The translations under genes were made by a program, and so were the position numbers. DNA of 60,796 nucleotides, the filler included, from Stramenopiles sp. TOSAG23-6 (taxonomy: Eukaryota): NCBI GenBank assembly GCA_900128565.1. It is 2 parts of 2 records of this genome, joined end to end, with 100 filler letters (N's around TTAATTAATTAA, not from the genome) between each part and the next. Parts side by side here need not be neighbours in the genome. Positions count along the whole stretch, not along the records: positions 30,671 to 60,796 come from LT635967.1; 1 more part is not named here. The stretch is one strand, 5' to 3'. The notes beneath the pieces were generated by a model. That model was not told the DNA's origin. It worked only from the letters and a program-made list of their open reading frames with translations, and did not search any database. Shown one piece after another: positions 34,657 through 55,972 of the stretch. Each line of letters begins with the position of its first letter. Within the stretch, counting starts at the first letter, position 1.

Positions 34657-36115
34657 TCATTTTATTTTTGCTGTTGAAATTTGGGAAACATTTTCAATCT
34701 TAGTGTTTAGCCACAATAGTCTCAGAGAGCATGCCGTTTCAATGACACCAAGTAAGTTAAGAACAAGTGGGAGTTGTTCATATGATAAAGATAAATTGTG
34801 ACCCCCTCCACCGGGTAGTACAAGCGTTCCTTGATCAATTGCTTGTCTTGAGTCTTCAGCAACAACACACCCACCAGAGATTTCTTCTTGAATATCATCT
34901 TGAACTGTATTACTTTCTACGTCTTGAACTGTATTACTTTCTACGTCAAGGTGATTATTACTTATTTTTGAGGCATTATTATTGCAAATAACACTATCAT
35001 CTTCCATACATTCGGTTGAAATGTCTTTAATATCTGATAAATTAAATTGAGTAAATTGAGTATCAGCGCTTGGAAATGAACTAGCAAAGGGAACATCAAT
35101 TGTTCCAACAGCATCAAACACTGTATCAAGCTCACGTGGGAGATGCACTTCTGAAGTTTCCTCGACAATCATTTGGGGTTTTGAAGTAGTTGTTTGTACT
35201 CGAATGTCAGGATTAGGGTTGGTGGTAGCATTTACTTCTTCAAAAAATCTCGTACTACTACCTTCAATATTGTTATTTTTATCAACCTCTGAAATGGTTT
35301 GATTATATTCTTGATTAGGGTTAGGGTTAGATATGGTTTGATTATATTCTTGATTATATTCTTGATTATATTCCACACCACACTTTAGTGGTTTGGTATT
35401 CATGTTGGCATTTGCTTGCATTCTATCTGCTAAGTCATTTATACATGTATTGTGAAAAATATTTCAAAAAAAATTAAATTAGGTACGAAATTTTCTATAA
35501 AAAAATAAATACATCTGCAATTCATCACGAAAACGAACACGTATGAAGACTACTTAAATGGCATACATTATCACCCAACCAACATAATAGATTTCGTGCA
35601 GACTCTTCACATAGATTTTGCTTTTCATCTATCTTTTTATATATAGCATTACCTGCAACATCAGATGTATGAGCAGAACCGTTGAAATTATAATAAGTAT
35701 CATTATTTTCGTACGTACCCCAATCTGAATAATTCCACAGAAGCTGATCTACTAGAGCGTTCGTTGGGCATAAACCATCATAATCTTTGGTAGTCGACTC
35801 AAATCTAACTTTTTTTTTCTTTTTTGATTTTTTGTGGAGTAATATCGATTTGACAATTTTGTTGTGGTATTCACCGGTGTGCGTTTTATTCGCTGTTTTA
35901 CGTTTCTTCTTTTGGGGTTGATCTTGAACGTTTTCGTCATTTTCATCAGTATTTTCAACGACTCGACATCTTTTGCGTGCTCGCACAGAGGAATCTGTTG
36001 TAGATTCATTTGATACATTTATCGAGGTATCAATAAATGAAGTATTTTCCACACTCTTTGAAGCCTTTGGATTCAGTTCACCTGGTGAAGTGTCAGTAAA
36101 CGATAAAGCACCCAT
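34657..36115 (-). CDS. Hypothetical low-complexity, probably nuclear protein (2 exons; GT-AT intron 35445-35538)
   Basis: Removing the intron gives ...HLSSLHTC-INDLADRMQANAN in frame; basic NLS-like stretches. Confidence 0.7.
35445..35538 (-). mobile_element. Introner-like GT-AT intron, copy 2 (94 nt)
   Basis: GTTCGT...aaatttcgtacctaat...ttcacaatacAT|GT. Confidence 0.8.
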
Positions 36116-36575
36116 TTCACAGACAATACCTGCACTATATTTAGTAGTAAAGAAGCACTGAGAATATTATATACTACTGTGCGCTATCCGCTAAAGGGTA
36201 CTCAGTTCTCACAATAACACATAAATTGAACTATAACATTGTCCAGAGCATGTATCAATGTTTGGTAAGGCGCACAAAAAAAGTCAGCTATAACTATTAT
36301 ATAGCAGAGGGAAGCTTACGATTAAATTTGTGTTAATGAAGACGCGACTATCAATTTAATTGACGCGTGTCTGAAATATAAAAATACAAGCTGTTATTTT
36401 TTAACTCGATTTCGTGTTTTTGTTGTAAGAGCTCGTGTTAGGAGTCAGCGAATAAAATTTTCATTTTCATGAATGCGCTCTCGCTAACCTCGAGAAAGAA
36501 AAGTTTCTTTGTTGAAACACTCACACGCCAAGGGTAAATTACAACGCATCCAATGGTTAGTTGAATGAATTGTTT

Positions 36576-36619
36576 AATATCACGGATGATTTAGCTATTT
36601 GCTAGTCATCCGTGATATT
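36576..36619. repeat. Hairpin with perfect 14-bp arms
   Basis: aatatcacggatga ... tcatccgtgatatt, extended by tagc/gcta. Confidence 0.8.
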
Positions 36620-37027
36620 GGCATTGTTCTTATTATTGTTCTTGGTTTGTGTTTATTTTTCTGGACTTATTGCGGAAGCTAATTTGGTGAATTTCGTCTT
36701 TTCATGCGTAAGAAACCAAGAAACTTTCTACATTTGTATATGGCTCTTCGAAGGGCGCGACGGATTACTTCGGTCCTATCTCGCTTCAAAACGATGCCTA
36801 TATTATGGCGATTGCTTACTATAACCAATTGTTTCCTCATATTGTTTGTAACTTGACACGATCTGTTGTGCGTGCCCCTGAAAAGGTTTCCGCGCATAAT
36901 TGTGTCTCGTGGCCCGAGTTTCTAACTAGTGACACATTGTTTTTCTAACAAATTAGAATTTCCCCCTATATCAACTGAGTTTTGTTTCCAATGCTTTTGA
37001 CATACTTTTGATTGTATTTGAAGTATT

Positions 37028-37192
37028 GCAAGCCACACTCTGTTCCGCGATCTGAAATGTTGCGGCTCAATTTTTTTTGCTTGCTATAGAGAGGTTTCCT
37101 AGACCATATTGTCTATCGTGAAACTTTTCATCAATGCTGATGAGGAGAGGATTTATCTTATGAACCCTTGTCTGTAATGATGAAGTACAATA
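37028..37192 (+). ncRNA. H/ACA-like snoRNA candidate (three hairpins)
   Basis: Stems gcaagc/gcttgc, gaggtttc/gaaacttt and ttcatca/tgatgaa, followed by ACA+3 nt; no perfect H box. Confidence 0.45.
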
Positions 37193-37250
37193 ACGTTTTA
37201 CTTCAATAATCATTTTTGTTTTCCCGTTTTTTTTGTTTTGTTGTGTGAGT

Positions 37251-37362
37251 GTGCAGTGATGTGAAAAAATATTTAATCTTTGAGAACTGAACCTAGAACA
37301 ATCCTGCGAGCTTCGCTGTTGTTTGATTATGGCATTGAGGTCAACCTACAATCACTGAGCAC
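37251..37362 (+). ncRNA. C/D box snoRNA, guide for the 5' end of 18S (Cm38-equivalent)
   Basis: Stem gtgc/gcac; C-like GTGATGT; TTAATCTTTGAGA antisense to the conserved 18S UCUCAAAGAUUAA before D' CTGA; D CTGA at 37355. Confidence 0.8.
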
Positions 37363-37376
37363 TTCTTAATGTTTTT

Positions 37377-37489
37377 TTCCTAAATGAAGACACAACCTCT
37401 GACAACTTGACGCGCTCTAGAAGTCAGCTTTGACTTTTAAACTGCACTGGCGACAATGTACTGAATTAATATATCAACTCTGATGGGAA
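37377..37489 (+). ncRNA. C/D box snoRNA candidate, target not recognised
   Basis: Stem ttcc/ggaa, C-like ATGAAGA, internal CTGA, terminal D CTGA at 37480. Confidence 0.5.
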
Positions 37490-37560
37490 AATCAATTTTA
37501 AAATCAATTACAACGACGTCTAACGAAATTCTTTCCATATTTTTCATTTTTTCTTTCTCT

Positions 37561-37694
37561 ACTGCTATGAGGACTTGAGGATAATATCCTCTGTGTCTCG
37601 TTCGCCTGAATATTCGCTTGAGTACTCGAGGTCGAGAACTCGCGACATTCTTTGATGTCAATATAGACTAACGGAATTTTATTTTCTGAGCAGT
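37561..37694 (+). ncRNA. C/D box snoRNA, guide for the 18S CGAACGAGAC region (Am)
   Basis: Stem actgc/gcagt; C-like ATGAGGA; GTCTCGTTCG before D' CTGA; second element TAACGGAATT antisense to the adjacent 18S AAUUCCGUUA. Confidence 0.8.
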
Positions 37695-37747
37695 TTTATA
37701 TATTTATCTGTGTTTTCTGTATTATTCATTGTAATATTTTTATTTTT

Positions 37748-37825
37748 TTCCGATGATTCAAAATTCTTGTCCTTATGGTGAAATATCCGATGATGGTTCA
37801 AAACGTTTTAATTAAACAATGAGGA
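37748..37825 (+). ncRNA. C/D box snoRNA, LSU guide
   Basis: CGATGA box; GTTTTAATTAAACA (14 nt) antisense to the conserved LSU UGUUUAAUUAAAAC, immediately before D-like ATGA. Confidence 0.65.
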
Positions 37826-37970
37826 GTTTTTAAATTTTCTTTTCATAGACAAAATTTCATACCTAACAAAAAGTGTACATTTTTTGATTCATTTTTTTGT
37901 ATTGGTTAACACTTTACTATTTTTTTTGATAAGTGTAAGGCACTATAATTTTCTTTTATTATAACAACAT

Positions 37971-38260
37971 CGAGATCTGGTATGCATGCTTTGGGATGTA
38001 GTAACCCTCAGCAGCTACCACTGCAATGATTTGCGCTGAGTTTTCTTTTCTAAGTTAACATTTCATGACGTCAATGCAAAGCTAAAGATCTTAAAGTAAC
38101 GAAGTTGTTGAGCTGCTATGTATTCTACATGTATAGTTCTATATGTACAAATATGTGTAGTATTGTAACGTGCTCCTTCTTTTCGGTCTCTATATTCCTA
38201 GTCTTGATATTAGCAACTATGTTGCCATTGATGTTGAGAAAAACCATAGATGAAACAATT
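37971..38260 (+). ncRNA. snR30: U17/snR30 H/ACA snoRNA (18S processing); 5' end approximate
   Basis: Diagnostic m1 ATATTCCTA (38192-38200) and m2 AAACCAT (38241-38247) in the 3' hairpin, ACA at 38255-38257; 5' hairpin agatct/agatct, H box AAAGTA near 38093, internal hairpin. Confidence 0.88.
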
Positions 38261-38328
38261 TTTTTTTTGTATTTTTTTGTATTGTTTTTGTATACTTTTG
38301 TGTTTCCTTATTATTTTATTTTATGAAA

Positions 38329-38502
38329 ACCCTGCGTTTGAACTGTTGGTTAGCTTTGCACTGATCCAATGCGTATAGAGCAGGGTAAGAAACGTTGTAA
38401 TAAAATGGTGGTATCTGCATCAATTGTTTGGTTTCTAACCGGGACCATATTAGTTGATGTACATATGGATGCTTACTGGGAAAGTTGCAGTATATTACAT
38501 TG
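38329..38502 (+). ncRNA. H/ACA snoRNA candidate
   Basis: Hairpin accctgc/gcagggt, second long hairpin, ACA at 38497-38499; imperfect H box. Confidence 0.55.
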
Positions 38503-38551
38503 TATTATCTACTCATATATATCCATATTTTTGTATTTCTCACCAATAATG

Positions 38552-38632
38552 TTCTTATGATGATAAAAACCGCGCGTGATGACTCACCGTCATTTTATTA
38601 TGAGCGTAGCATTGTTACACACTCTGAAGGAA
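38552..38632 (+). ncRNA. C/D box snoRNA, LSU guide
   Basis: Stem ttctt/aggaa; C ATGATGA (38557); TTGTTACACACT antisense to LSU AGUGUGUAACAA directly before D CTGA (38624). Confidence 0.8.
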
Positions 38633-38672
38633 TATTTTTATTTTTATAACCATTTTTATATATGTTATTTGT

Positions 38673-38760
38673 ATGGCACTGAAGATTCTCCTCCTTGGCT
38701 GTGTCTGATGGGCCTAGATACCCCAAACGAAGACTCCTTTTCAAGCCCGAACTGAGCCAT
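38673..38760 (+). ncRNA. C/D box snoRNA, LSU guide (CACAGCCAAGG region, Am)
   Basis: Stem atggc/gccat; C-like TGAAGA; CCTTGGCTGTG before D' CTGA; CAAGCCCG antisense to the nearby CGGGCUUG before D. Confidence 0.8.
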
Positions 38761-38799
38761 TGTTTGTTTTAGTTTTGATATTTTTACAATTTTATGTTT

Positions 38800-38954
38800 T
38801 CGCCGTTTTGCCACTGCTCATGCTTATTTAATGCATTAATTGCGGTCTTCCAAATTCGGCGTATATTAGTCTTCCCACTTCGGGTGCAGACTGTGTTATC
38901 TGGGCAACTACTACTGTGCACCAACTAGTATTAGGAATCAGGCGACCAACATCA
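38800..38954 (+). ncRNA. Canonical two-hairpin H/ACA snoRNA
   Basis: Hairpin cgccg/cggcg, H box ATATTA (38863-38868), second hairpin ggtgca/tgcacc, ACA at 38949-38951. Confidence 0.75.
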
Positions 38955-39538
38955 TACTATTATTTCTATCTTTTGTTTATTCTTTAAAAAAAATTATAAA
39001 AATGCTTATATAATATTATTATTGGTGGTTTATTCTTTAAAAAAAATTATAAAAATGCTTATATAATATTATTGATGTCCATTATTCTTTTAAAGAAAAA
39101 AATGTAAAATTATGTTTCATTTTTTAACAACCGAAATTCCAGTCGAGTTAGAATTTCCATATCGGTTTTGAAAAATATACAATCCATATGGACTCATCTC
39201 TTTACTCTCTATGTACTACTTATACGTAATAATGCACTTTGAACTGATAAATTATAAATTGATAAATTGGCGCTTCGTAACTGTTTTTTTTTTCGCGAGC
39301 CGCTGACTTCTTCTTTATTCATATATAGGTTAACGTAGGCTCCTTGTTCCATGCTATCGAAACACATACTGTAGTAGTATAACTAACTATAGCTACTACT
39401 GTACAACGACTATTCCTACGGTTACCGTGGTACTACGGTTTATGGAATACATTTCATCCTTTCTATTCTTGACTATCGCTCAACTCTTTTCTTGATTAGT
39501 GTAAACTAGTATTCAAGTAATATATTTAGTTGTTTGAA

Positions 39539-39739
39539 ATGCTATTGCCAATTTTAAAAAAAGTAGTACCAGCCTGTTTCTTTGCTGGTGCAGGAATTGA
39601 ATTGTTTCTATACAAAGGAGGTTTTTACGAACACTATACAATGAAACAAGCTCTATTGAATTTAGAAGCAAAAGAAAAAGAAGCCACTTACTGGGCAAAT
39701 CGCGAAAAACAAAACGACGGTGCAGCTGAAGAAGAGTAA
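39539..39739 (+). CDS. Small mitochondrial membrane protein, SMIM4/UQCC5 (UPF0640)-like
   Basis: PACFFAGAGIELFLYKGGFYE..KQA pattern, 66 aa. Confidence 0.65.
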   Translation: MLLPILKKVVPACFFAGAGIELFLYKGGFYEHYTMKQALLNLEAKEKEATYWANREKQNDGAAEEE

Positions 39740-39854
39740 AGAATACTGACAGTGTGAAATGTCTATGCTGAAATAGAGAGACTATACGCTAGTTAAATGA
39801 AACAAAGATACATAATTATGATGAAATTACAGTGAATTAAATTTTGAATTTCAT

Positions 39855-42800
39855 TTATTCTTTAAAACCATTCCTATGGACGTTTTCTATTTCTTCTAAA
39901 TAAAGATCATTCGTTTTAGAATCGACAGCTTGATTTTCAGTGGATAATTGTTCTTTTGTGGTTGCTTCTTGTGCAACAAGGTTACCGATAGGCACGATTT
40001 TGGTAGATTTTTTCTTATTTGCTTTCAGCACATGAATCGTTCGATTCGAAAATATATCTAAAGAATCAAGATTAGATCTCTCTAATTTTGGCCATTTTCC
40101 AATTTTTGAAACGTAGTGTATACATTGTGAAAAATATTTTTTGTTTGTTGGAAAAATCGTTAGGTACAAAATTTCGTACGAAACAAAAATAAATTCGAAT
40201 TTCAAAAATTAAAACGTACATTGCTGCATCACCTTTAGTCCCATCAGCCTTATTTGGAATACCAAACATTGAAGCTGCGGCATGCGCTACTATTGTACAC
40301 GTAACTAATCTACTAAAATAGTATGAAAAGGTAGTATCAATCATGATTAATGTATTTTGGAAAAATATTTCAAAAAAAATTTGTTAGGTACAAAATTTCG
40401 TACGAAAAAAACAATTGAAATTTGAAAAAAAATAAAACATATATATAACCTTTGAGATAGAACCAAAGATGTTTTCCGTATCCAAAAACACCCCCTTGAA
40501 AACTTCAGTTTCGTCAAATATTGCCCAAAGTATGAAGCCAATTATGACAAATCCGATAGATAAATACTTCAAAACTATGTTTAGTTTCTTACTCAAAAAA
40601 TTCTTTACTACTTTTTGGAAAGTAAAAATTTCAACCCCAATGACAACAAAAGCAAAATACCAATCCGCGTAAGCTTGATAAAAGAAAATAACTAATGCGA
40701 CGTTAGGTAAAGCTGATACGGCGCCAGCTACAGCCCTGAGGAGTGATGCAAATTGATTCAGTGAGTGCAAGTCTCTATGATGCTTAAGAGCTTTTGAAGT
40801 TTTCACAACTTTATCAAATTCACCGACTCCTTTGACGATTCCTTGAGAAATTCCTTGTGCAAATGGTAGTAATTTAGCAAACACGCGAAACCCAACAAAT
40901 GTACCAATTACAAATTTAACTTTTTTCAGTCCAGAAATCATACGTAAAACTGTAGCTTCAGCAGATATTTTTACAGCTTTAAAACTAGACAGTTCACTGA
41001 TGGCTATTAAATCACTTATTTGGCTAGCAAATAGTTTTTCTGCTTTTTCGATATTTTCATCAAGTTTTGAACGCGCAGATTTTGCATTAGCATTCAGACC
41101 ATTTTTAGTTCTAGAGGTACTATCTTCAATAAAATTATATATTTCATCACTTGTTTTAATTACGTCGTCTAAAATCTGACTTTCTAGAGAATCCAAACTT
41201 GTAGTAGTACTTCGTTCAACCCCAATTATTCCTTGATGACGGCCTTCAAATGCATCCGCTATGAATCCCATGACACTTTGTGAATACATACCACATCGAC
41301 CCTGTGTGCTTTCGCCAATGTTGGTTCGCTCCTTGTTGTGATCTGTATTAGGATCATTAAGCCATACACACTTGGCTCTACACACATGATCTACATTATC
41401 CACTTCTGTAGAATCAGAATAAAACTGATTTACACAAGTTGAACAATCTCCATCTGGAACACAATCTCCATAATGTACGAGGCATACATGATCACCAAGA
41501 GTCCAGTATAGCATCAATTCATTGCGACAGTAATCACAAACACACTGAACATAATTGTATGCCGCAGTATCTGTATCAAGTACATTCTTTACAAAATTAT
41601 AGTCGTTATCCCATTTAGGATCATTTAAAGCAAGCTTCCCGTTATCTGAATTTGGCCAAGATACAACACATTTCTTTTCAACAAAATCTGTGTGGCACTT
41701 ATCATACTTGGATTTGTTTTGAATCTTTTCGTCATCCGTAAAAAAAAATATATAACCGTGTTCCCTTGAACAATACTCTCTACCTGAAAAATTTTCGTGA
41801 CAATTTTTCCCCCATGCTTTAGGCGGAAATCCAGCAGGGTTTCCAAGCCCTGGATTTCCTAGGGCTAATCCATCTTGTGTAGCTACCTTATATACAGTGT
41901 TCTCACACTGAGCTTTTGTAAATTTGTTGACGGATAGTGTTGTTTCCTGACCATGGCAATCATCCACCCATCCACCCTGTTGCAATATGTCTGAATAAGG
42001 CTCTTTTAAATCTCCGTGTACTCCAAAATATAAATCAGTTGCAATGTTACGAAGTTTTGAATTAATTTGTTTATGAGCAGTATCTGTTGTATCATCTACA
42101 GCCTTTGTCAAAGTTGATACAAGGACGTTGTTTGCATCACCAACTACTTGCATCAAATAAGAGGCTTGCTTAGATACATATTCTTCTAATTGTGACGATT
42201 CTGTAGTAACTTCTATTGCAGTATTTCCACTATCTTTTTGCATTAAATATTCCAATTCTTGAATATTGGGGATAAGTGATTGTGACGCAGCATCCAACAA
42301 TTCAATGAGATCTGTTCGAGTGTATTGCAATATTTTAGCTGCATTAAATATAAAGGGGTTTATTGCATCAGAATCAAATATAGCTTTTTTCTTTGGGTAA
42401 GTATTTCTAAAACGACCGACTGCGTCTGCTGCCTTGTCTAAAACACTAGCCAACATTGTCCAATTACCAGGTATATTCTGAAAGCCATTGAGATTCGCTG
42501 TCGCTATAGGTATTGCCTTCAATACAAGAGGAATCTCATGTCTTAAGTCCAATTTGTTAGTATCACCACGTTTATTTGCTTCAACCCAGGCTGGTCCTGA
42601 AAGCGTGAACTTTGCAGGATAACCTGTTTTGGGGTCATGAAGTTGAGCAAAAAAGACACAAGCCGCCTCCTTTTGTTCATCAGTTGGTAGAGCTTTAATT
42701 GCAGCTGCCAAATCTTGATGATTTTTATTTACTTTCTTCGCTTCACTTGCTTGAACTACACACTCCGGATCGGAATATCCTAAAGAAATACATGTGCTAT

Positions 42801-44311: not shown

Positions 44312-44539
44312 GGCTCAGAAAATTTGTTGTTACAATTTATGGAAAAATATCCATACAATAATATTTGATTCATCGTAAATCTGGTATAGTATAGTCATTC
44401 AAAATTGAAACGGCTCTCAGGAAAAACGACACAGATATCGCGGAGTACCGGGTACCCATCCAATTCAAAGGAAGACAGACTAAATTATATAGAGACTTTT
44501 TATACGTATTTTTTAAAAGGTAAAAGGAAGTTTTCATTC

Positions 44540-45918
44540 TTATAGCTTCGAATCAAAACATTGATGATTCAGACATTCTAATATCAGAGCATTCGCTGTT
44601 CCACCACCTTCACATATTGCCTGAAGACCAAAGCGTTTGTTTCTTCTTTCCAGTTCACATAGCAAAGTCGTACAAATTTTTGTACCTGTAGCACCAAGCC
44701 TATATTGAAGAATATTTGTTTCAATGCAGAAAAATTATTAGGTATGAAATTATTCACAAAAGAAAAAAAAAATGTAGTGAAAAAAATGTGGAGTAAAAAA
44801 AATATTCAAAAAAAAAAAACTTAAATTTGTTAGGTACAAAATTGCGTAGTAAAAAAAACATACGGATGACCTAAAGACATTGCTCCACCATTAACATTTA
44901 ATTTGCTCATTTTACCTCCACATTCTTTTAGAAAGCATAACGGCACAGATGCAAAGGCTTCATTGACTTCGTACAGGTCAATCTCATCGATTGTCAAATT
45001 CGCTTTCTGTAGAACTAATCGTGTGGCTGGTATAGGTCCATAGAGCATCATGATGGGACAACTACCAACAACAGCAATTGAAACTATACGAGCTCTTGGT
45101 GAAAGATTTAGCTTTTTTAATCCTCTTTCGTTACAGACTAACATAGCTGAAGCGCCATCGGTTATTTGCGAGGCTGTAGCAGCCGTCAATTTGCCTGTTT
45201 CTTGAAGTAACGGAAGTTTTCGTAACTTTTCTTTTGTATTGGGCCAACGAATGCCTTCATCTTTACTAACCATTATTTCATTACCGTCTTTGTCAACACC
45301 AGCAATAGGAATTATTTCACGAACAAATCGACCTTCTCTAGTTGCTCGATGAGCTCTTTTATGTGATAGTAGGGCAAATTCTTCCATATTTTCACGGCTT
45401 AATTGTGCTTTTTCTGCTACTAGTTCTGCACCAGCAAACTGTGAAAACATCACATCTGGGTACCTTTCTTCAATCCCATCACTATTAAATGGAAAACCAT
45501 GTCCTGCTTTCATCCCATCAGTAATATTTGCACCAATTGGCACAAGTGTCATACACTCTACTCCCCCTGCGATGATAACGTCTTGTGTGCCCGACATTAC
45601 AGCTTGTACTGCAAAATGCAAAGCCTGCTGTGAGGAGCCACACTGTCGGTCAACAGTTGTACCTGGCACTGACTCTGGAAGGTTTGAGGAAAGAATGATA
45701 TTACGGGCTAGATTACCAGCCTGGCTTCCGACTTGAGATACACAACCAAAAATACAATCGTCAATCATATCAGCACGTTCGTTTGTCAAATTATTACGAG
45801 CTAGTAGAGCATTGACCACAACGGCACCAAGATCAGCTGGATGCCACTCTCGAAGACTACCCTGGCGTTTTCCACCAGGTGTGCGACAGCAGTCCACAAT
45901 GTACGCTGTGAATGGCAT
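44540..45918 (-). CDS. Thiolase (acetyl-CoA acyltransferase), peroxisomal PTS1 -SKL, one GT-AG intron at 44700-44863
   Basis: DRQCGSSQQA, NEAFA, GHP|LGATG, CEGGG; ends DSKL*. Confidence 0.93.
44700..44863 (-). mobile_element. GT-AG intron (164 nt) containing two introner-family cores
   Basis: GTATGT...aattttgtacctaac...aatttcatacctaat...caatatAG. Confidence 0.75.
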
Positions 45919-46115
45919 TTTATGTAAATGTAGTCAATTTCAATAGTTAACAGAATATTCAATATAAATTTTCGGTATTAAATTTTCCGGAATATTTGAT
46001 TCATTTGTCGTTTCATTTGTTTTTTCCGATTTCGTGTAAAAATGCCCGGGGCACTCTCATCATCAACCTACAGACTACAGTATGTATTACTAGTGTTTAC
46101 ATAAGAAGTAGGAGG

Positions 46116-48105
46116 ATGTCATCGTCAGCCCGTCGATCAGATTTTAAGCGCAATTGCTTTAATCATACAGAAAAACGCCGATCGTATGCTACAAATCTCC
46201 GTAAGAATAAGCGTACACAAAAGATTTTAGCTAAACGGCGGAAACAAAACCCGAAGAATTCCGATGGATCTTTGCCTTTCGATACCCCCTCAGAGACTAA
46301 CGTTGTCGCTGCACTCTCACGTCTTCGGTACGCAATAAATACTTCAGATGTATCACCTACTGATGCCTTGAAATATTTACGTCGTTCATTATCACTAACA
46401 GATTTAAGTGATGATTTCATTTCTTTAGCTGTAGCCAACGATGCATGTCGTCTTTTTGGTGAAATAATAGGTGCTAATTTGAGTTCCTCAACAACACAAA
46501 CATCCAAACGAATATTCGAAGATAATGATATATACGAAGCTCTATGGTGTCTCGGCAATATTGCTTCTGGAACGAAAGAGCAAGCAAAACATGTTCTACC
46601 AGCTCTTCCTGTTGTTTGTCAGTTTCTTTTAAGTAATAATATTTTATTACAAGAGCAAGCTACCTGGGTAGTAGGTAACGTGAGTGCAGACGACAGTTGG
46701 CGTGCACAACTTCATGCTGCCGGTGTTATTGAATCTGTTTCTAATTTATTAAATGGTTTAACGAGTGAAATCATCAAAACTGCTGCGTGGAGTATATCCA
46801 ACTTAGCAAGAGGTCGCCACACACCCGTTGAACCATTTTTTAATTCTAAGTGTAGTACGAAACTCATTCAACTTTTAAAACGTAAAATTATAAACCCAAA
46901 TTCTACATTGAATGTATCTACAGCACGCACTGATAGTAACCACAATATGATGTTTGATACACCTGTCATTGAGGAAGCTCTTTGGGCGCTAAGTTATCTA
47001 TCTGCAAGAAATAATACGTTCACTCAAAAATTACTTGACGATGGTTTTCTATCGGGTTTATTCGGTATTCTTGTAGATATTGATATGACATCTACATTGA
47101 AGATCTGCACACCTCTTTTTCGATGTTTTGGTAATATTTTGGCGGGGCCAAATTCTTGGGTAGATGTTGTTCTCTTTGGTCATGAAAGTCGAAATACAAT
47201 AGTGAGAGGTAATTTATCTATATTCGTAAAAAACGTATTTCGTGTATTAAAAGTTCATATTGAAAATAGGTCTGTGACTAAGGAAATATGTTGGGTCTTG
47301 TCTAATATTAGTAGTGGCACTCCTCATCATTGCGAGGCTTTATTTTCAGAACCAGGTTTAGTTGAACAACTTATAGCTATTTTCTTAGATTCGGGATTTG
47401 ATGTTCGGAAAGAGGCCGGAACTGTAATTTTAGGTATTGCAGCTGCTTCTAACATTTCATTTCAAAAAATTTATTCAAAAGACATTTTAGTTTCATTTCT
47501 TAGATTTAGTGAGGCACCTGATTATGATGGGAAAAAGTTATGTCTAAATTATGTTGATCTTGTTTTGAGTCATGTACGTTTTCACATCATGAATTTATTC
47601 ATTTTTTTTGTATGAAAATTTCGTACCTAACGATTTTTTTCATGTTTTTTTTTTCACAATACATGGTGGTAACTATATTCGAGAGGTAGAAGAGGCGAAC
47701 GCGATTGAGTTACTAGAATTGATCCAATATGGGACTGATAGATGTTTATCTAAACATGCTCAATGGCTTGTTGATACTTATTTTGGTGAAGACTATGATG
47801 ATGGAGAAGAAGAATATTCTATGGACCATTCAATAGATGAAACTTTAAAAAAACCAAGTTTTCAAAATGCAGTGACACATGGTACCTTTCTTCCATTTGG
47901 AGATAATAAAAAACATTCGGATAATAAACCACGCCCTTCTGTTACACCTGCTTGGATGAATCATCAGGAAAATAATCCACCCATTAGCTTGGAGAAAAAC
48001 GTGTTGGATGAAAAATCACGAAATATACATGAAAATAATACATTAGAACCTTTACCCGGTCAACAATCACTGTTTGACTTTGGGTTTACATCAGATAAAA
48101 GATAG
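46116..48105 (+). CDS. Divergent importin-alpha-like ARM-repeat protein (2 exons; GT-AT intron 47574-47664)
   Basis: IBB-like RR...LRKNKR...AKRR; EALWCLGNIASG, EQATWVVGNV, TAAWSISNL, EALWALSYL, KEICWVLSNI, DVRKEA. Confidence 0.88.
47574..47664 (+). mobile_element. Introner-like GT-AT intron, copy 5 (91 nt)
   Basis: CAT|GTACGT...aaatttcgtacctaac...ttcacaatacAT|GGT; removal gives LVLSH-GGNYIREVEE. Confidence 0.82.
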
Positions 48106-48408
48106 CGCATCGCTTTATCATACAAAAAGATAGGGATGACATAAACAGTACAGCAAGGGATGACATAAAAAGTAGAGCAAGGGATGACATAAAAAGTAGG
48201 TACTACTTTGACAGTAAGTCACATTAATTTTTGACTCTTTATAAACACGAAATATGAGTTTAAAGTAGTATATATTAAATTTGGTTCATTCGTCTCTTTT
48301 AATTACAAAACAACATTGCAACGATACATCTAAAATCTTAAATAAAACGTGCCCATAGAATGAGAAATCATACTATCGACATCTACTGCCATAGATTTAG
48401 TTTCTCGT

Positions 48409-49158
48409 TTACCAAGCATCATCATCGTCACCGCCGAACATGTTTCCAACTTCGACTTCTTCTTCTTCCTCCTCTTCTTCTTCTTCGACTTCCTCTTCAG
48501 CTGCAGCGCCACCAGCGCCACCAGCGCCGCCGCCGCCACCGCCGCCACCGCCGGCAACTAAGCGTTCTTTTCCAGCTTCCAAAAGTTCTTCAATGCTTTT
48601 ACCTGCCATCTTTTCCATAAAAAATGAGAGAGCGTTAGCATCTACTTCAATGCCACTTTTGGTAAGAAGTTCAGAAACTTCTTCAGCAGTTGGCTGAGCC
48701 TTTCCGCCAAGAGCGAGGAGCATGTATGCAGATGTGTACTATAATGTGTAAATATAGAATACACGTGTCAATTTTAGTAATGATTTAACGAGTAATGTTG
48801 GGCACAAGTGAACAGTCATGGAAATAAAGGGAAACTCGCTTGTTGAAAAAGAAACGATAAACAAAAAGTGTTTTAAAACTATAAAAAACAATTGTTAACA
48901 ACACAAAAAGCATTTTAACATAAGGTATAACTATATGAAACACGTGATGAATACTTCATTGTCATAGCGATTCGTTAAAACAATATTTTGTCAAAATCAT
49001 ACAACGCGTGGTAGTTACCATAATGAAAGGATGCTCAAAATCTCTTAGACTTCTCTGCAGATACTTCCAAAAGAGCTATTCCAACATGTTTCAACATCAG
49101 TATTCATTTTAAGTTATGCAGTCTGTTTGTTATACTTGGAGTTTTAACTTACCTTCAT
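48409..49158 (-). CDS. RPLP2: 60S acidic ribosomal protein P2 (canonical GT-AG intron 48739-49152)
   Basis: MK|YTSAYMLLALGG...GKSIEELL..G..L, acidic tail; donor GTAAGT and acceptor TATAG. Confidence 0.92.
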
Positions 49159-49547
49159 TGTGATTAGTTTTACTGAGAAGAATGAATAAACGAACGCACG
49201 AGCGGAGGCGGACCAACTCAACAATTTTGTGTTGTAGTCAGCAAAATATGGCGATGGTTGACAGAAACATAACTTGGACAAACCTGCTTTTCTACATTTT
49301 TTTCCATTTCAATGATTTCATTCAAATTCAATGATCCAAGTTCCCTATTTGAATAAAAAATGGCATAACCAATTAATCAATTGGGGGATTCAAAGTGAAG
49401 AGCATTTTTTTATTAAATATTGAATATAAAATTAGAATATCTTTTATTTTCAGACCAAAAATCAAGGACATCTAAATTTAGGGTAATAGATCTATTATTT
49501 CCTCCCTCTCCTTTCAAATAAGACACAAATTTGGAGAAATATCTTAT

Positions 49548-50639
49548 TCATGAGTGTTTCTTACCGTCGCTATACTCTTCCAGAGTCCAGTTACATTTCT
49601 CCAGCGTCTGTTTGTGAACATTGTCTGATATATTGTGTTGAGTAGAAAACTCACGCAGTAATTTTTTTTCCGTGGGCTGCACCACACTATCTACAAGAGC
49701 ACTTTGCATCATCATGTAGTAGTTCATTATTGGTTCCGCCTTATCCTTTTTAAGCATTTCGTCTACAACACTGTTGAGACAGAGCTTCACTTCTTCGCCT
49801 TCCAATATATCCCCACCTTGTTTAATTGCCGACCGCATTTTCTCATGTGTGAAAGTTATGTATCGGACTTTGTCGTATTTCTCGCACACTTTGGCAGTCA
49901 TTTCATATTTATCTGTAGCTTTTGAAATTTCAGTGAAACCACAAGAACCAATTAAACTCCCAGGTCCAACAGAACATGCATATTCATCATCTAAAAAGAG
50001 ATCAACTTCCCCTGAGGTTATAAGTATCAATATTTTGGCATCTTCACCTTGTTTGGCAATAACTGCTCCAGTAGGTGCACTTGTCCATTCGTTGTAATTA
50101 TTCATAAGTATTTTGAATGATTGTAAACTCATCATACCAGATAGATGGTTATATAGGTCCAACTCATCTTTTGTAAATTTCACTTCACCTGACATGATGA
50201 TCTTGTAAATGGCGGTTGAATTTAGGCATATATAAATAGTACTCCAAAAGACAGCAACTTTCCAGGCAGGACTTGTGAAGAATTGGTAAACGATACTACA
50301 TGTACTTCCACAGATGGCCATAATCCGAAGTTGCAACACGTCTGAACATGAATATTGACAGAAGCCAATAAAAAACCCTAAATTACCGATGTAAAATGAA
50401 TTTCTCTTAATGAAAGCGGCAACGGGAGATTCCTTTTTTACAGCAGCTTCACTTGCTGTATTACTCATGAAACGTCTCCACGGCCGAAATGATGTTGGTG
50501 CTCTTTTAGAAAACGTGCTTATAACACGACGTTGCAAATAATTTTGTGTGTTTAATGCTGGGATACTTCTAGAGTAGTGAGTTACAGCAGGTTGGAAATT
50601 GTTATGGAACTTAAACCTATTTAAACATAATCGAAACAT
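49548..50639 (-). CDS. Popeye/cNMP-binding-domain membrane protein with a mitochondrial-type presequence
   Basis: DVLQLRIMAI, VFWSTIYICLN, FTKDELDLY, LILITSGEV, GSLIG. Confidence 0.72.
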   Translation of the reverse strand: MFRLCLNRFKFHNNFQPAVTHYSRSIPALNTQNYLQRRVISTFSKRAPTSFRPWRRFMSNTASEAAVKKESPVAAFIKRNSFYIGNLGFFIGFCQYSCSDVLQLRIMAICGSTCSIVYQFFTSPAWKVAVFWSTIYICLNSTAIYKIIMSGEVKFTKDELDLYNHLSGMMSLQSFKILMNNYNEWTSAPTGAVIAKQGEDAKILILITSGEVDLFLDDEYACSVGPGSLIGSCGFTEISKATDKYEMTAKVCEKYDKVRYITFTHEKMRSAIKQGGDILEGEEVKLCLNSVVDEMLKKDKAEPIMNYYMMMQSALVDSVVQPTEKKLLREFSTQHNISDNVHKQTLEKCNWTLEEYSDGKKHS

Positions 50640-51002
50640 CGTAAAGTATGGAAAAATAATTGGAAAGGGTACGTAGACAAGATATAGGAAATGCAACGGT
50701 ATCATCATGCAAAATATTTTAAAACCGCATGGTACCGGGTATCGTAAATTCGATCGCGCGGTCAGACGTCATCGGATCGGACTCGACGCGTCTTTTTGGT
50801 GGTACAACACAACCAAAATTAGTCAACCAAAATATAACAACAACGCCCACATTTTTACACTCATAGTTGTAAAGGGCTTCATTACAGGAAAAATTATATG
50901 CTAAAATTATACGACTTCACTTAAATCGTTATTTAGATTTTACTTGTATTCACCCTAGAATAAAGTGGGAAGAAAGCATTCACATAAAAGAACAAGTGCA
51001 AA

Positions 51003-52103
51003 ATGACTCCCAATCGTGAAAGCAAAACGTTTCTAGACATGGATAAAAATAAGGATGGTTTTGTGTCACTAGATGAATATTTACCGCACCGGAAATCTTT
51101 AGCGGAAGATATAAAAACATATCACAAACCTGATGTACAATTTTCCCGGACTTTTGCCGGTCAGGCCATCTGCGCGGGTGTAGCAGGTATATGCCAAATG
51201 TACAGTGGAGGAATAGTTTTAGATACAGTATCTACGCGCTTACAGGCTGGTTTTGGAATTGGCCAAGCACTTTGGGGTATCCGTGGATATAAAAGTACTA
51301 ATCCAACATCACTGATATCAAGAGCAGCTGCTGTACATGGTGTCTCGAAGACGCAACTATGTCTCTCTCTTCTAAAAAGGTCGAATTTATACGCAGGCAT
51401 TGGTGTAGTTGTTCGAGGTCGCTTCCCCTATTTAACGTTAAACTTAGGTACATATGCTCAAGCGGAACAATGGGTATTAGGGATTCGGGGTGGTGTCTAT
51501 CGTGAAAAGACACTAGGAGAAGATCTATTTTGTATTGTCAGTAGCACTTCGGTAGGCGCAGCTGCTATAACTGCCATTGAATGTCCAAAAATTTTAGATC
51601 AGTTGAGGGGCGGACAAGTTGATAAGGCAAATAGAAGCACTGTTTTGGGGGTAATTAAAAAATTCGGGATACGTCGTTTAATGCAAGGCTATGAGGCTAC
51701 ATTTCTTAGAGAGTTTTGTTTCAATTGTGCACTTTTGGGCTCTCCTGGAATTTCCAAAAGATTACGATCTAATTTTATCGAGCCTAATCTTGAAACTTCT
51801 GCAGTCGCACGTTTCTTTGATGGAAAAGAAATGTTTTTCACTAGCATGGCAATGGGATTTCCTATAGGTTTTATTACCAATGTTCCTGATCAAATGAAGA
51901 CAAATATACAAAAAGGACAATTTCGAAATATACTTGAAGCGATCAAGTGGCAATCAACTCAAGGTGGGGGTATCAGAGGATTGTTGGGTAAAGCTGCAGT
52001 GTATCGATCTCTGTATATTTGTCATGGTGTCGTTTTCCTCAATTTTGCAAGGACACGTGTTGAAACACTACTTAACAATAGTCGTTTAGACGAGTTATTT
52101 TAA
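51003..52103 (+). CDS. Mitochondrial carrier family protein with an N-terminal EF-hand
   Basis: DKNKDGFVSLDE EF-hand; LDTVSTRLQ, IECPKI and PDQMKTNIQ carrier signatures. Confidence 0.8.
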   Translation: MTPNRESKTFLDMDKNKDGFVSLDEYLPHRKSLAEDIKTYHKPDVQFSRTFAGQAICAGVAGICQMYSGGIVLDTVSTRLQAGFGIGQALWGIRGYKSTNPTSLISRAAAVHGVSKTQLCLSLLKRSNLYAGIGVVVRGRFPYLTLNLGTYAQAEQWVLGIRGGVYREKTLGEDLFCIVSSTSVGAAAITAIECPKILDQLRGGQVDKANRSTVLGVIKKFGIRRLMQGYEATFLREFCFNCALLGSPGISKRLRSNFIEPNLETSAVARFFDGKEMFFTSMAMGFPIGFITNVPDQMKTNIQKGQFRNILEAIKWQSTQGGGIRGLLGKAAVYRSLYICHGVVFLNFARTRVETLLNNSRLDELF

Positions 52104-52304
52104 TTTTTTTTTTTTAAATTGTTTGATAAAATGTATTCAAAAGTGAAAAGTCAATAAAAATAGGTTATTCGTCATATTTCGTGTTTTTGCGCTTGATCGT
52201 TTTTAGAATCTTCTGGGTTTCTTCTTTGGCCAAGTCAACTGGTAAAACTACAAAAATTGAAGTACAAAATATCTAATGTTTTTCAGTTTCTAGGGTAAAC
52301 TTCA

Positions 52305-53009
52305 ATGTGTATAGATTGTGCAAGGAAAGCTATACAACATCTAATAGCTTGCTTCCCACCAGGTCCAGGAGGTTGGCGCATTTGTCTACTTGACCACGAC
52401 GACCACGTACATATTAGAGTCCACGTTGCTGGTGCAGGTGGAACTGTTGAGTTTAGTGAATGGGTTGATTTGGTGGCACCTTGGGCTGATATATATCCAA
52501 TGCTTCCGGAAAATACCTTCGTTCATATCCATCATGATTTAAAGTCGAATGGTTTACATAGTAATGTAATTGATCAAATTGAAAAGTTAGTGTGGGATGG
52601 TAGGAAAGATGGAAATATCTTTTGTAGCATCTGCAGAGATACTTTTACACTGGGTGAAGATATCTTAGTACTACCATGTAAACATAGATATCATGTAGAA
52701 TGTATTAAAACGTGGTTGAAGCGGAAAGATACATGCCCTGTATGTCGATTATGTGTCACGAGCGTAGAAATAGAGAAAAATAAAGAACTCCAAAATGACC
52801 TCAGACAGTTGAGAAGACGTGATGAGAAAAGTCTCAATAATAATGGTCATATACAATCTTCAAATAGTTCTTTGTTAACAGTATCAGAAAGAACACAAAG
52901 AACACAACCAACATCAATCACAGGCGCATATTCTGTTATAAGTGAAATTCATGCTGAAAATAGTCTCTCCCCCAGTCAAAGGATTAATAAGAAGTGTGTA
53001 ATATCATAA
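52305..53009 (+). CDS. RING-H2 E3 ubiquitin ligase
   Basis: CSIC...LPCKHRYHVECIKTWL...CPVCR. Confidence 0.88.
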   Translation: MCIDCARKAIQHLIACFPPGPGGWRICLLDHDDHVHIRVHVAGAGGTVEFSEWVDLVAPWADIYPMLPENTFVHIHHDLKSNGLHSNVIDQIEKLVWDGRKDGNIFCSICRDTFTLGEDILVLPCKHRYHVECIKTWLKRKDTCPVCRLCVTSVEIEKNKELQNDLRQLRRRDEKSLNNNGHIQSSNSSLLTVSERTQRTQPTSITGAYSVISEIHAENSLSPSQRINKKCVIS

Positions 53010-53113
53010 TAATAATAATATCATAATAATAACTCAAAGATTTCAATAGTAGTAAATATGTATATATTATAGGTGTAAAATGCTCAATTACGATTTTTAT
53101 TTATATTCTAATT

Positions 53114-55972
53114 TCAGCCATCGTTAATGACATTATCATTATCAATAAAACATCCCTCAATATCCTGAATAATATTATTCTCCTTCAAGTGTCTAAAAAA
53201 TAACATTGCATTTTCACTCTCATTTCTATTTGTTTCATATCGATTATATTCCAAACGTACATATATTGTGAAAAAGTATATTATTTTAAATTGTTAGGTA
53301 CGAAATTTCGTACGAAAAAAAAATTTAGATTAAAAATTCAATTTTGAAAACGTACGCTTAATAGCCAATTATGAACTTCGTCGTAAATAATTTCAACTTT
53401 TGGGAGAATTCCTACCCAAAGAGACGAATCAATTTCTTGCCATTGAACCTTTTTGTGTTTTTTATTAATTTCATGATTGGTCTCAATACACTTCACTATT
53501 TTTTTATCAATCAATGTCTTTAATGCTGTTGTGTCAATCTTTTTATTTACAGTAACTCGTAAAATTGTATTTCCAGAAGATTTTGCAAAAAGTCGTTTCA
53601 TAATTCGTTGTACGATGACACAGACTATTAGTAACCAGACCATATTTAAAGCAAACATGTATTGTGAAAAAATATTTCAAAAAAAATCGTTAGGTACAAA
53701 ATTTCGTATGAAAAATAAATAAATTTGAAATTCACGATGAAAACAAACCATAGACCTGGAATTCGAATAATATCATTGACAAACATATCATCAACCCACT
53801 TTGGCACAGTAATATTCAGTGTTCCACCGGATAGTCTGTCGATTATATCAAATGCAAAAGACCCCGCTACAATCATTTGAAGTACTTGCAGTGAAATTGA
53901 AGTTTTTTCTTTTACGGTTGATGTTTCGACAAGAAATTTGGTATGTATTTTGGAAAAATATTTCAAAACAAAAAAACGTTTTTTTATTAGGTACAAAATT
54001 TCGTACCAAAAAAAAAAACGAATTTGAAAAAAAATAAAACATACATTATTCTCCACATCCGAAAAAATGGCTTCCAACTGTTTCGTATTGATTACATCAG
54101 TCATCTGCTGAAGTGTCAACAATTGATGTTGCTCCCCTTCAATTAATTTTAATAAATCAGTACATCGTAAACATGTATTGTAAAAAAAATTAAATTCGAA
54201 ATTTGTTAGGTACAAGATTTCGTACGAAAAAAAAATTGAAATTCATAATGAAAACGTACCTATATCGCGTTTCATTTCGGCAGGTTCCAATACTTTAAAT
54301 AATCTTTTACCATTTAAATCTTCTGGTATATCTGGAATAGTAAGATCTTGGAGAGAGTCCGACAAATATTCCAAAATTTCCCTTAATAGAATTACATCAC
54401 ATGAAGCAGAGTTTAATTTGTCTCTAATTATCCCGACATTATTTGGATCTCTTTGGTAATTGCCAATCAATTCGCGGATGTTCGACATTAAGTCATCAAG
54501 TACAAAAGTTCGGATGAAAAAATTGCGGATAAAGATTTCCCGTGTGAGAAGTGATAAATATAAAAACAATATATTTTCATGTTGCATACAGTGTGGACCA
54601 CACAATAACACTCCATCTTGTCCCATCATAATGACATCTTTGTCGCCAAGGTCATGACATGCGCGTAAATCACCGAGAATTTGCTTCAACTCATTTTCTA
54701 AATCACCTTTATCCATATAATCCTCTCCGTCAATTTTTGGTGAAATTTTTTCTGCAACAATGCAATTGAATTTATTACGAGTTTGAGACTCACCCAAGAA
54801 AAGCATATTTAAAAGTTCACTTTGATATTGTGATAACAAATCATTCATTATTCGACTTGAATCTTGATGCAAATCAACCAACAATCTTGATAATAAGTCC
54901 AACGAAATATCATCTTTTTTACGGTCTAAAATAGCTTCTACAAATATACCATACACGATAGTGCCATCTACATTTAAGTGCATACCAAAGTTTTCTACTT
55001 GGACAATATCATCATTTTCCGGGTAATTTATTTCTGCTTCAAAATTAATAAATTGAACAAAGTCGTAATCTAATATTTTAACATCAGTAAGACCTGTAGG
55101 AACTTCGAATTGTGTGTCTGTAGGATTTTCATCAATAAGTGACGTAAAAAGTCCACCCTTACAGCGATCCATGGCCCCTAGGCGTTCATTTAAAGCAACA
55201 ATTTGATTGGCTCCAAATGGTATCCACTCCCCTACCATTACCATAACTTGTCCTATGACAATAGCTTCATCTAGTTCGTCTCGTATGCCGCTTGAACCCA
55301 TTGCGGACTCTTCAGCTCTATGGGAGTTTGTTGTAAATGGCATCATAAAACGACTCTCCTTAAAGGTGAGGAAACATAGGAGACATCTTCAGTTTCGGTT
55401 ACATTACTTTCTTTTCTTTCGCCTGATTCAGTATGTAACACAAAAGAACGTTTACTGTTGTTGTATTCTATTTTAAATATAGTACCATCCGTAGAGTGAA
55501 GAAACTTATCAACTTCATTCTTTACTTGTGTGGGTAGAATTTTAATAAATGCTATTCCCTTTTCAGACGCTTGAAACGCCGTGACAGGCTGAAAGTCTTC
55601 TGTTGAGAGTTTTAAACCATTTACCATATTGCCTTCTCGTAAGTCATCAATGACAGATTTACCCTCCTGAGAGACGTTCATCCATAATCTTCGAGAAACA
55701 CCATGATGTGATACAAGACAAGAAACAGGTGCATAATCTAAGTCAATGACACCTGCAACTATTCCTTCATACAGAAGAACAGAGAGAGGAATTTGTCGAA
55801 TCCATGTTTCTTCATCTGTTGCCAACTGTGCTGCATTTGCATATTTTGAAATCAAATAGAGGATTCGACAGTGTTCCATACCCCACTCTTCGTCTGGGTC
55901 GTCGTCCTCAGAAAGAAATTGGTTTGGTGGTTTCCATTTAATTCCTGGATTTTGTTCCTTTGATTCTGGCAT
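53114..55972 (-). CDS. Conserved-looking hypothetical protein with two C-terminal TM helices; four GT-AT introns and one frameshift near 55360
   Basis: Removing 54173-54259, 53943-54044, 53657-53748 and 53261-53355 yields one frame to TGA at 53114-53116. Confidence 0.75.
53261..53355 (-). mobile_element. Introner-like GT-AT intron, copy 6 (95 nt)
   Basis: GTACGTTT...ttcgtacgaaatttcgtacctaac...ttcacaatatAT|GTACGTTT; removal gives NWLLS-VRLEY. Confidence 0.82.
53657..53748 (-). mobile_element. Introner-like GT-AT intron, copy 7 (92 nt)
   Basis: GTTTGT...tacgaaattttgtacctaac...ttcacaatacAT|GTTTG; removal gives IPGLW-FALNM. Confidence 0.82.
53943..54044 (-). mobile_element. Introner-like GT-AT intron, copy 8 (102 nt, in frame and stop-free)
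   Basis: AT|GTATGT...gtacgaaattttgtacctaat...caaaatacAT; removal gives DVENN-TKFLVE. Confidence 0.8.
54173..54259 (-). mobile_element. Introner-like GT-AT intron, copy 9 (87 nt)
   Basis: AG|GTACGT...ttcgtacgaaatcttgtacctaac...acaatacAT|GT; removal gives KRDIG-LRCTDL. Confidence 0.82.

Follow-up and report, generated by a model that had tools for sequence, protein, structure and literature searches.

Algal introners, such as IE1 of Micromonas pusilla, are described in two sources (PMC11282704, PMC12130899) as many similar short introns at unrelated sites, mostly non-autonomous, in which the element gives one splice site and the target duplication gives the other. We report here on a comparable intron family in a 60,796-nucleotide stretch of DNA from Stramenopiles sp. 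TOSAG23-6 (assembly GCA_900128565.1; two parts joined end to end, referred to below as the window) and in the genome to which it belongs. As compared to these algal introners, the duplication in this family comprises 2 nt rather than 3, the acceptor is AT or another NT rather than AG, a second register appears to co-opt the donor, and the inverted ends span just 4 bp.

Introns derived from miniature inverted-repeat transposable elements (MITEs) are known from the tunicates Fritillaria borealis and Fritillaria pellucida, with a 3' AT in 34% and 44%, respectively (PMC13326754). They share with the present family an apparent derivation from MITEs, the common 3' AT, a YAY triplet that both precedes the donor and closes the intron, and processing by the major spliceosome, the minor spliceosome having been lost in Fritillaria. 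The donors of the Fritillaria introns are mostly AG and very diverse, the U2AF genes are duplicated, and the ends of U1 are unchanged according to that source, whereas a single family with GT donors and a changed U1 arm is found here, in an unrelated lineage. Departures from the usual U1 arm are also on record for Entamoeba, Mastigamoeba, and Physarum (bioRxiv 10.1101/2022.06.08.495308, in part). In Entamoeba and Mastigamoeba, as here, the arm has come to match a donor of atypical sequence; ACGUAC is found in Mastigamoeba and extended pairing in Entamoeba. The changes described there face the intron, whereas in the present U1 the alteration extends to nucleotide 9, the partner of the last exon base. 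In addition, the donor here is that of an apparently mobile family, and the acceptor differs from AG. ISL2EU elements (PHIS superfamily; PMC4482050, in part) share the AT target duplication. Their A|AT|T target does not apply here (A before the duplication in 19/111 copies, T after it in 36/111): C or T precedes, G or T follows, and other dinucleotides are also duplicated. No YqaJ gene was found in the incomplete assembly.

A literature search outside which most subscription papers fell returned no GT-AT introners or changed U1 in marine stramenopiles of the MAST groups. In 12 of the 14 files of the PMC12130899 supplement, there was no entry for Stramenopiles, Bigyra, or Opalozoa, and both of the two places displayed, out of four containing 'mast', referred to lichen. 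In our judgment, what is new about this introner is that its 2-nt duplication occurs in two registers, that its acceptor is not AG, and that a U1 matches it.

Family size, layout, and probable removal from GT to AT

The presence of an 18S rRNA and of spliceosomal RNAs indicates a marine eukaryote as the host, and the closest match to the thiolase (P0272, 90% identity) carries a source label that points to a MAST-3-type stramenopile. The family core, AAATTTCGTACCTAA, was matched 10,213 times with at most one mismatch in the 21.1-Mb assembly (G000), 5,227 times in the forward and 4,986 times in the reverse orientation. A control pattern gave one match in each orientation in the same assembly. 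Since the assembly is partly redundant (identical contigs, inverted duplications) and contigs often break inside the core, the true copy number is estimated at several thousand. Long inverted duplications within contigs (L034-L036, L040-L042) resemble amplification chimeras and inflate the counts. No match to a 25-nt core pattern was detected in viral contigs.

The catalogue draws on the window itself, on 80 stretches each 10 kb long, and on 30 loci of 3 kb each. De-duplication reduced 386 raw cores to 323, of which 170 had both ends above threshold, and removal of one duplicate left 169. Ends were anchored on interior letters only, leaving the terminal dinucleotides free, and a stricter motif set (87 copies) limited mis-anchoring. 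The 169 distinct copies with both ends, present in approximately 0.95 Mb, are many similar introns at unrelated sites, as is characteristic of introners. Their median length is 95 nt. The layout comprises the donor GTAYGTTTT, the branch motif GTACCTAAC approximately 37 nt before the end, and a terminal TTTTYCAMAATAY followed by two variable letters (NN). The first two letters are GT in 142 and AT in 11 of the 169 copies. The last two are AT in 128, TT in 20, GT in 9, AC in 4, AG in 2, CT in 2, and others in 4. The AG acceptor of U2-type introns is therefore not a feature of the family, and the two copies with an AG/AG repeat are accordingly ordinary GT..AG introns.

Reading frames were used to locate the cut sites. 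Among 128 copies that could be tested, 81 were confidently flanked by coding sequence on both sides. In 70 of these 81 copies, the frame is preserved when the stretch from GT to AT is removed exactly, whereas removal up to the first downstream AG preserves it in 24, the third expected by chance, and retention of the copy breaks it in 76. Stops occur within the first 30 nt in 1 of 70 in-frame windows versus 100 of 140 out-of-frame windows. With respect to the genes, 92 of the 128 copies are in the sense orientation, none is antisense, and 36 are unclear.

Protein comparison bears on the same question. For the window gene harboring copies 6 to 9 (see the list below), 33 non-self homologues, among 150 listed, have no gap at any of the four junctions that they reach; the copy 9 junction is spanned by 31 of them, the other two stopping before it. 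At copy 9, these 31 homologues hold 12 residues that are missing from the public gene model P0123, in which an AG acceptor is imposed. Removal also restores conserved motifs in SNF2, PRMT5, M16 peptidase, and HIRA genes, and Pfam positions continue across the junction (HIRA 155|156). An AT..AC register would give Met at the copy 7 junction, where 28 homologues have W (20), F (6), or another residue (2) and none has M, and it yields a stop at a second locus (L108). In these copies, whose two ends differ, the conserved Trp and the stop set the register as GT..AT. From these comparisons of DNA and protein sequences, we infer that the copies are introns cut at GT..AT. RNA sequencing runs X6-X14 contain small shares (5-19%) of the sequence words.

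The window contains 10 matches to the family core versus 0.31 expected. The preliminary description had located nine copies at 35445-54259, which the present analysis bears out; a tenth lies outside this interval. The copies, numbered according to position and delimited by means of the reading frame, and their associated features are as follows.

35445..35538, minus strand: copy 1, a 94-nt GT..AT intron with the donor GTTCGT, followed by GT (reading frame, match to the family hidden Markov model, HMM)
40120..40219, minus strand: copy 2, a 100-nt GT..AT intron with AT before and AC after, joining two long frames
40350..40442, minus strand: copy 3, a 93-nt AT..AT intron preceded by AT (reading frame)
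44700..44863, minus strand: copy 4, a 164-nt compound GT..AG intron with two branch motifs in a thiolase gene, without a 2-nt repeat
47574..47664, plus strand: copy 5, a 91-nt GT..AT intron in a divergent importin-alpha gene, with a CAT/G repeat
53261..53355, minus strand: copy 6, a 95-nt GT..AT intron followed by an 8-nt repeat of its own start (frame, homologues)
53298..53313: an exact 16-bp palindrome, the sole one in the window, its right half forming the beginning of the branch motif GTACCTAAC
53657..53748, minus strand: copy 7, a 92-nt GT..AT intron with a 5-nt repeat after it and the donor GTTTGT (a conserved Trp results at the junction)
53943..54044, minus strand: copy 8, a 102-nt GT..AT intron preceded by AT (frame, homologues)
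54173..54259, minus strand: copy 9, an 87-nt GT..AT intron followed by GT (frame, homologues)
53117..55388 (lower end approximate), minus strand: conserved gene of unknown function harboring copies 6 to 9 (frames, homologues)
6567..6664, minus strand: the tenth copy, a 98-nt GT..AT intron with repeats on both sides

For copy 1, which is preceded by GT, only the start at 35538 gives an open junction; a start at 35512, which would put AT before the copy, gives no open frame. An end 4 nt shorter for copy 2, needed for a following GT, leaves the long downstream frame. Removal of copy 4 restores GHPLGATG, which is present in 8/8 homologues among those listed. No close homologue was obtained in the importin homologue search for the gene containing copy 5. 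Copy 8 is in frame and stop-free if kept, and its 34 residues are absent from the homologues. An in-frame AG located 36 nt downstream of copy 9 would remove the 12 residues missing from P0123.

These ends modify the boundary repeats initially described. A 2-nt repeat had been reported for all nine copies and is found in eight, the exception being copy 4. An AT repeating the terminal AT precedes copies 3, 5, and 8, as stated, and also copy 2, but no such repeat precedes copies 1 and 4. The repeat of the donor follows copies 1, 6, 7, and 9 (2, 8, 5, and 2 nt, respectively) but not copy 2. The longer repeats GTACGTTT (copy 6), GTTTG (copy 7), and CATG (copy 5) are all present.

A rough parse of 0.86 Mb returned 229 family-like introns and 4 ordinary GTAAGT..YAG introns; the de novo gene parse is noisy, its 803 'other' introns being mostly false, and the share of introns attributed to the family is accordingly approximate. 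Compared to an exponential distribution, exon gaps shorter than 100 nt are in deficit (27 versus 47) and gaps of 100-200 nt in excess (64 versus 39). No period suggestive of nucleosome spacing was detected in 53 longer exon gaps. At one locus (L032, plus strand, near 7480-7680), two copies lie head to tail with one AT in common and no exon between them. The window also contains, in a long non-coding stretch (37790-37960, plus strand), a degenerate core motif without clear ends or a family-HMM match; an ordinary GTAAGT..TAG intron that interrupts a ribosomal P2-like gene behind its second codon (48739-49152, minus strand); and arrays of coding repeats with 72-nt and 24-nt units at 31109-34006 and 18223-18510.

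Boundary repeats, inverted ends, and mobility

The two nucleotides upstream from a copy are identical to its last two in 111 of the 169 copies, versus 15.6 expected for random insertion and 86.0 ± 3.3 in permutations that keep the AT bias (0 of 20,000 permutations reached the observed value). Identity exceeds the permutation level at positions -2 and -1 only, and weakly at +4 (p 0.03). The stricter set gave 64/87 versus 47.9. Ends other than AT were matched upstream in 10/14 copies of the stricter set (GT 4, TT 4, AA 1, CT 1) versus 0.9, and in 14/41 copies of the larger set, including the two AG/AG copies, versus 1.9. A catalogue based on the HMM comprised just 26 copies with both model ends; the repeat was present in 20/26 versus 15.4, a small sample that agrees with the larger one. 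Insertion phases (30/19/21) fit the supply of AT in the three coding frames (0.45/0.25/0.30).

A second register is suggested by the downstream side. GT follows 21/58 copies lacking an upstream AT versus 13/111 copies having one (p 4e-4), and 15/31 versus 9/56, respectively, in the stricter set (p 0.002). We discarded mere bias as the origin of the downstream GT since it is concentrated in copies lacking the upstream AT. Overall, the repeat is on the left only in 96 copies, on both sides in 15, on the right only in 18, and on neither side in 40. The right-only copies end in AT in 17/18 cases and differ from the others by two interior letters. A repeat on either side is present in 129/169 copies versus 101.1 ± 3.9 in permutations keeping the flank bias (maximum of 118 in 20,000). 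Tested against permuted flanks, boundary repeats in the genome sample are in excess far beyond chance. The initial proposal, in which a 2-nt duplication supplies one of the splice sites as in algal introners, is supported, the site being mostly an AT acceptor and in a minority of copies a GT donor. The sequences would fit two registers, GTAY..RTAC, in which the acceptor is duplicated, and AYGT..ACAT, in which the donor is duplicated. The 4-bp inverted pairs of both registers, previously given as AYGT..ACAT and GTAY..ATAC, are consistent with the data, but direct proof of the minor register is weak.

The short inverted ends previously noted are present but limited to 4 bp (identity of 68, 84, 85, and 62%, then 0% at position 5). 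The 16-bp palindrome is located at the center of the copies, as described (arm medians of 47 and 47, rho 0.27, n = 154), but it is generally imperfect. The exact 16-mer occurs in 1/10 window matches and 11/169 genome copies, and the commonest form, with one mismatch, in 42/169. The right half, being part of the branch motif, hardly varies; the left half decays and is less conserved. Among 8 pairs tested for covariation, no compensatory change of note was found, the sole both-sided change (pair 4/13) occurring in one copy, and the A-T form of pair 5/12 is about as frequent as in permutations (p 0.70). The median pairing probability is 0.15 in the sense and 0.11 in the antisense orientation, and 0.004 for the terminal 4-bp stem. 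A conserved RNA hairpin was rejected on the basis of the missing compensatory signal, the decayed left half, and the low pairing probability. Neither of the roles previously envisaged for the palindrome, a transposase site or a hairpin positioning the branch point, is supported. We read the symmetry as the probable relic of a MITE-like ancestor.

Two transposase loci were considered as autonomous partners of the family and rejected. The PIF/Harbinger element on contig C2432 has its own 28-bp inverted ends, starting with GGCCG, and TAA on both sides. The lone DDE_Tnp_4 gene on C4153 (L118:392-1648, 419 aa) has no family ends in its contig. The Harbinger element is complete, with two convergent genes (L119, L122-L129; G000:C2432:502-3610) and a short degenerate family copy between them. 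No autonomous partner was found among the 23 of 166 orphan donors read by eye, the sample covering 4% of the assembly. In the strict sense, the earlier claim of transposon insertion stays inferential, no transposase-coding element with the same ends having been found in the searches for DDE_Tnp_4 and YqaJ. A metagenome scan with one PRMT5 exon returned 8 distant loci only.

U1 and the splicing machinery

The search for U1, in which 41 of 253 candidates were scored, returned two identical matches on duplicate contigs, the sole U1 found. The U5, U2, U1, and U4 small nuclear RNA genes are arranged head to tail within 640 bases (L117:9-645; G000:C1146, duplicate C6122), and the U1 gene retains the U1 fold and Sm site. 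Its 5' arm starts with AAACGUACAUGG, the Rfam consensus being AUACUUACCUGG. Three changes in the arm, at nucleotides 2, 5, and 9, face donor positions +7 and +4 and exon position -1, respectively. Pairing is gained at +7 in 168/169 copies, at +4 in all 169 (63 G-C and 106 G-U), and at -1 in 138/169. With the family donor, CAT|GTAYGTTT, the arm forms on average 9.4 of 11 pairs versus 7.0 for the usual arm. Position -3 is C or T in 74 of the 111 AT-preceded copies, as pairing with G11 of U1 would favor. Since the upstream AT pairs with the changed U1, splicing rather than insertion can account for some of the AT bias. The exon AT thus appears to be favored twice, by duplication and by U1.

The branch-pairing sequence of U2 and the ACAGAGA sequence of U6 are of the usual type. 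As in U2-type introns, the donor pairs by sequence with U1 and the branch site with U2. The U12-type consensus comprises the donor RTATCCTT and the branch CCTTAAC; the family has AYGTTTT at +3 to +9 and GTACCTAAC as the branch motif. Among the minor spliceosomal RNAs, U12 and U6atac were the ones searched for, and neither gave a match in the incomplete assembly in a search lacking a positive control. One divergent U2AF65-like gene, below the family cut-off, was detected (L146:1108-3069, minus strand); both of its middle RNA-binding domains match the first domain of the model. A zinc-finger search gave 23 matches, and the 8 loci read from it did not include U2AF35. The region of PRP8 that was read (941 aa) is close to its human counterpart, with no clear change in the 3'-site region. 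PRP8 differs from the human protein in two short stretches (query residues ~307-316 and 498-510), and its locus (L130) contains a 2,021-codon frame without copies. Our guess is that the AT end is chosen by its distance from a strong branch site and a U-rich tail, a final U being preferred.

Interpretation and significance

The best explanation, to which we assign a probability of roughly 0.72, is a non-autonomous introner removed by the major spliceosome with a matched U1. The copy number, the exact removal according to frame and homology, the covarying 2-nt repeat, and the complementarity to U1 were computed. From these, we infer DNA transposition, the two registers, a selection filter, the cellular use of this U1, and the mode of 3'-site choice. 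A DNA element of about 91-93 bp would carry its own donor GTAYGTTTT, the branch site TACCTAAC, and a U-rich tail, and would insert with duplication of 2 nt of the target. In the main register, the element would be GTAY..RTAC and the duplicated target letters would become the acceptor; in the minor register, it would be AYGT..ACAT and the duplicated letters would become the donor. In both registers, removal from GT to AT would restore the target exactly. Survivors in exons would be sense insertions whose duplication yields a usable site, AT and less often TT, GT, CT, or AG as the acceptor and GT as the donor. The major spliceosome would then cut, the U1 arm pairing with CAU|GUAYGUUU and the choice of the 3' site no longer requiring AG.

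Several observations weigh against this explanation. Eleven of the 81 copies fail the frame test, 8 of them being mis-anchored as judged by eye and 3 unexplained, and the cut sites are deduced from DNA and protein comparison rather than RNA joints. No repeat is present on either side in 40/169 copies (12/87 in the stricter set). Identity between the first two and the following two letters is at the permutation level over all copies (33 versus 30.9), and the matching of non-GT donors downstream is weak (6/27 versus 2.4, p 0.025; 3/16 versus 1.6, p 0.20, in the stricter set). The inverted ends do not covary. Among transposase families, DDE_Tnp_4 (PF13359) was the one searched, and it gave two distinct loci, neither with family ends; YqaJ (PF09588) had no match in the incomplete assembly. 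Nearest neighbors are approximately 81% identical among 26 full-length copies and none are identical; because the copies have diverged, activity may be old and the burst need not be current. The U1 match scores 54 bits, below the cut-off of 69.5, and a second, usual U1 could be absent from the incomplete assembly. Ordinary GTAAGT..YAG introns persist (the 4 in the parse and the one in the ribosomal P2 gene).

An unlikely alternative dispenses with duplication altogether. The motif CAT|GT..CAT|GT would be a proto-splice-site pattern, equivalent to AG|GT..AG|GT with AT in place of AG, and the copies would have spread by reverse splicing or another RNA route. The changed U1 would favor exon ends in (C)AT, the acceptor would be YAT, and exon starts would tend to be G or GT. 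The pairing of the upstream AT with U1 nucleotides 9-10 and the pyrimidine at -3 are in keeping with this scheme, as are the asymmetric target context, unlike a palindromic target, the sense orientation of all 92 oriented copies, and the failure to find a transposase partner. However, flank bias alone cannot generate the TT/TT, GT/GT, AA/AA, CT/CT, and AG/AG repeats, observed 14 and 10 times in the two sets versus 1.9 and 0.9, and the either-side repeats exceed those of all 20,000 bias-keeping permutations.

Capture of element DNA by repair, at staggered breaks or through short end matches, possibly from a circle with the junction ..ACAT GTAY.., is quite improbable. It predicts left or right repeats of varying length. 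Repeats do occur on either side, those on the right reach at least 4 nt in 7/169 copies versus 0.6 from the flank background (3.6 by permutation, p 0.03), the inverted ends are minimal, and the searches gave no transposase partner. Microhomology does not account for the sharp end of the left covariation after 2 nt, for the 4-bp inverted ends obtained in both registers, or for the equal, MITE-like arms about the central palindrome.

Splicing at AT..AC or by another minor (U12-type) pathway, or at ordinary downstream AG sites, is very unlikely. In left-repeat copies, AT..AC removal would give the same mRNA as GT..AT removal, but pairing with U1 sets the cut before GT, and the copy 7 Trp and the L108 stop reject the AT..AC register. 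The lack of U12 and U6atac matches argues weakly, given the missing positive control, against U12-type splicing. The first downstream AG is the type of site used by P0123 and keeps the frame in some copies, but only at the chance level noted above, and the residues that the AG-based model deletes are kept by homologues at copy 9; we therefore rejected it as the acceptor. Finally, DNA-level removal or no removal (somatic excision, dead genes, or an assembly artefact) is extremely unlikely in spite of the lack of RNA evidence and the chimeric inverted duplications (L034-L036), since the copies have a spliceosomal donor, a branch site, and a matching U1, are strictly in the sense orientation between conserved frames intact on both sides, and three seawater DNA runs contain 57-75% of the words of 44500-54400.

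Beyond the introner explanation itself, we tentatively propose, with slightly less than even confidence, that the major spliceosome has been retuned to a mobile element. The sole U1 would pair with the donor of the element and with the AT left by its insertion, the 3' site would be recognized without AG, and insertion in two registers would allow a target AT as well as a target GT to yield a clean intron. Few features of splicing are as constant as the AG acceptor and the U1 arm. In this genome, one family of elements appears to supply most introns, to break the AG rule, and to face a U1 with three fitting changes. The tunicate Fritillaria solved the same problem without a change in U1. In practical terms, gene models forced to AG, such as P0123, are wrong for this organism. 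The family offers a test case in nature for asking if the spliceosome is reshaped by transposons and how a 3' site is picked without AG. If the proposal is true, a transposon family would have driven sequence change in the exon-pairing part of U1.

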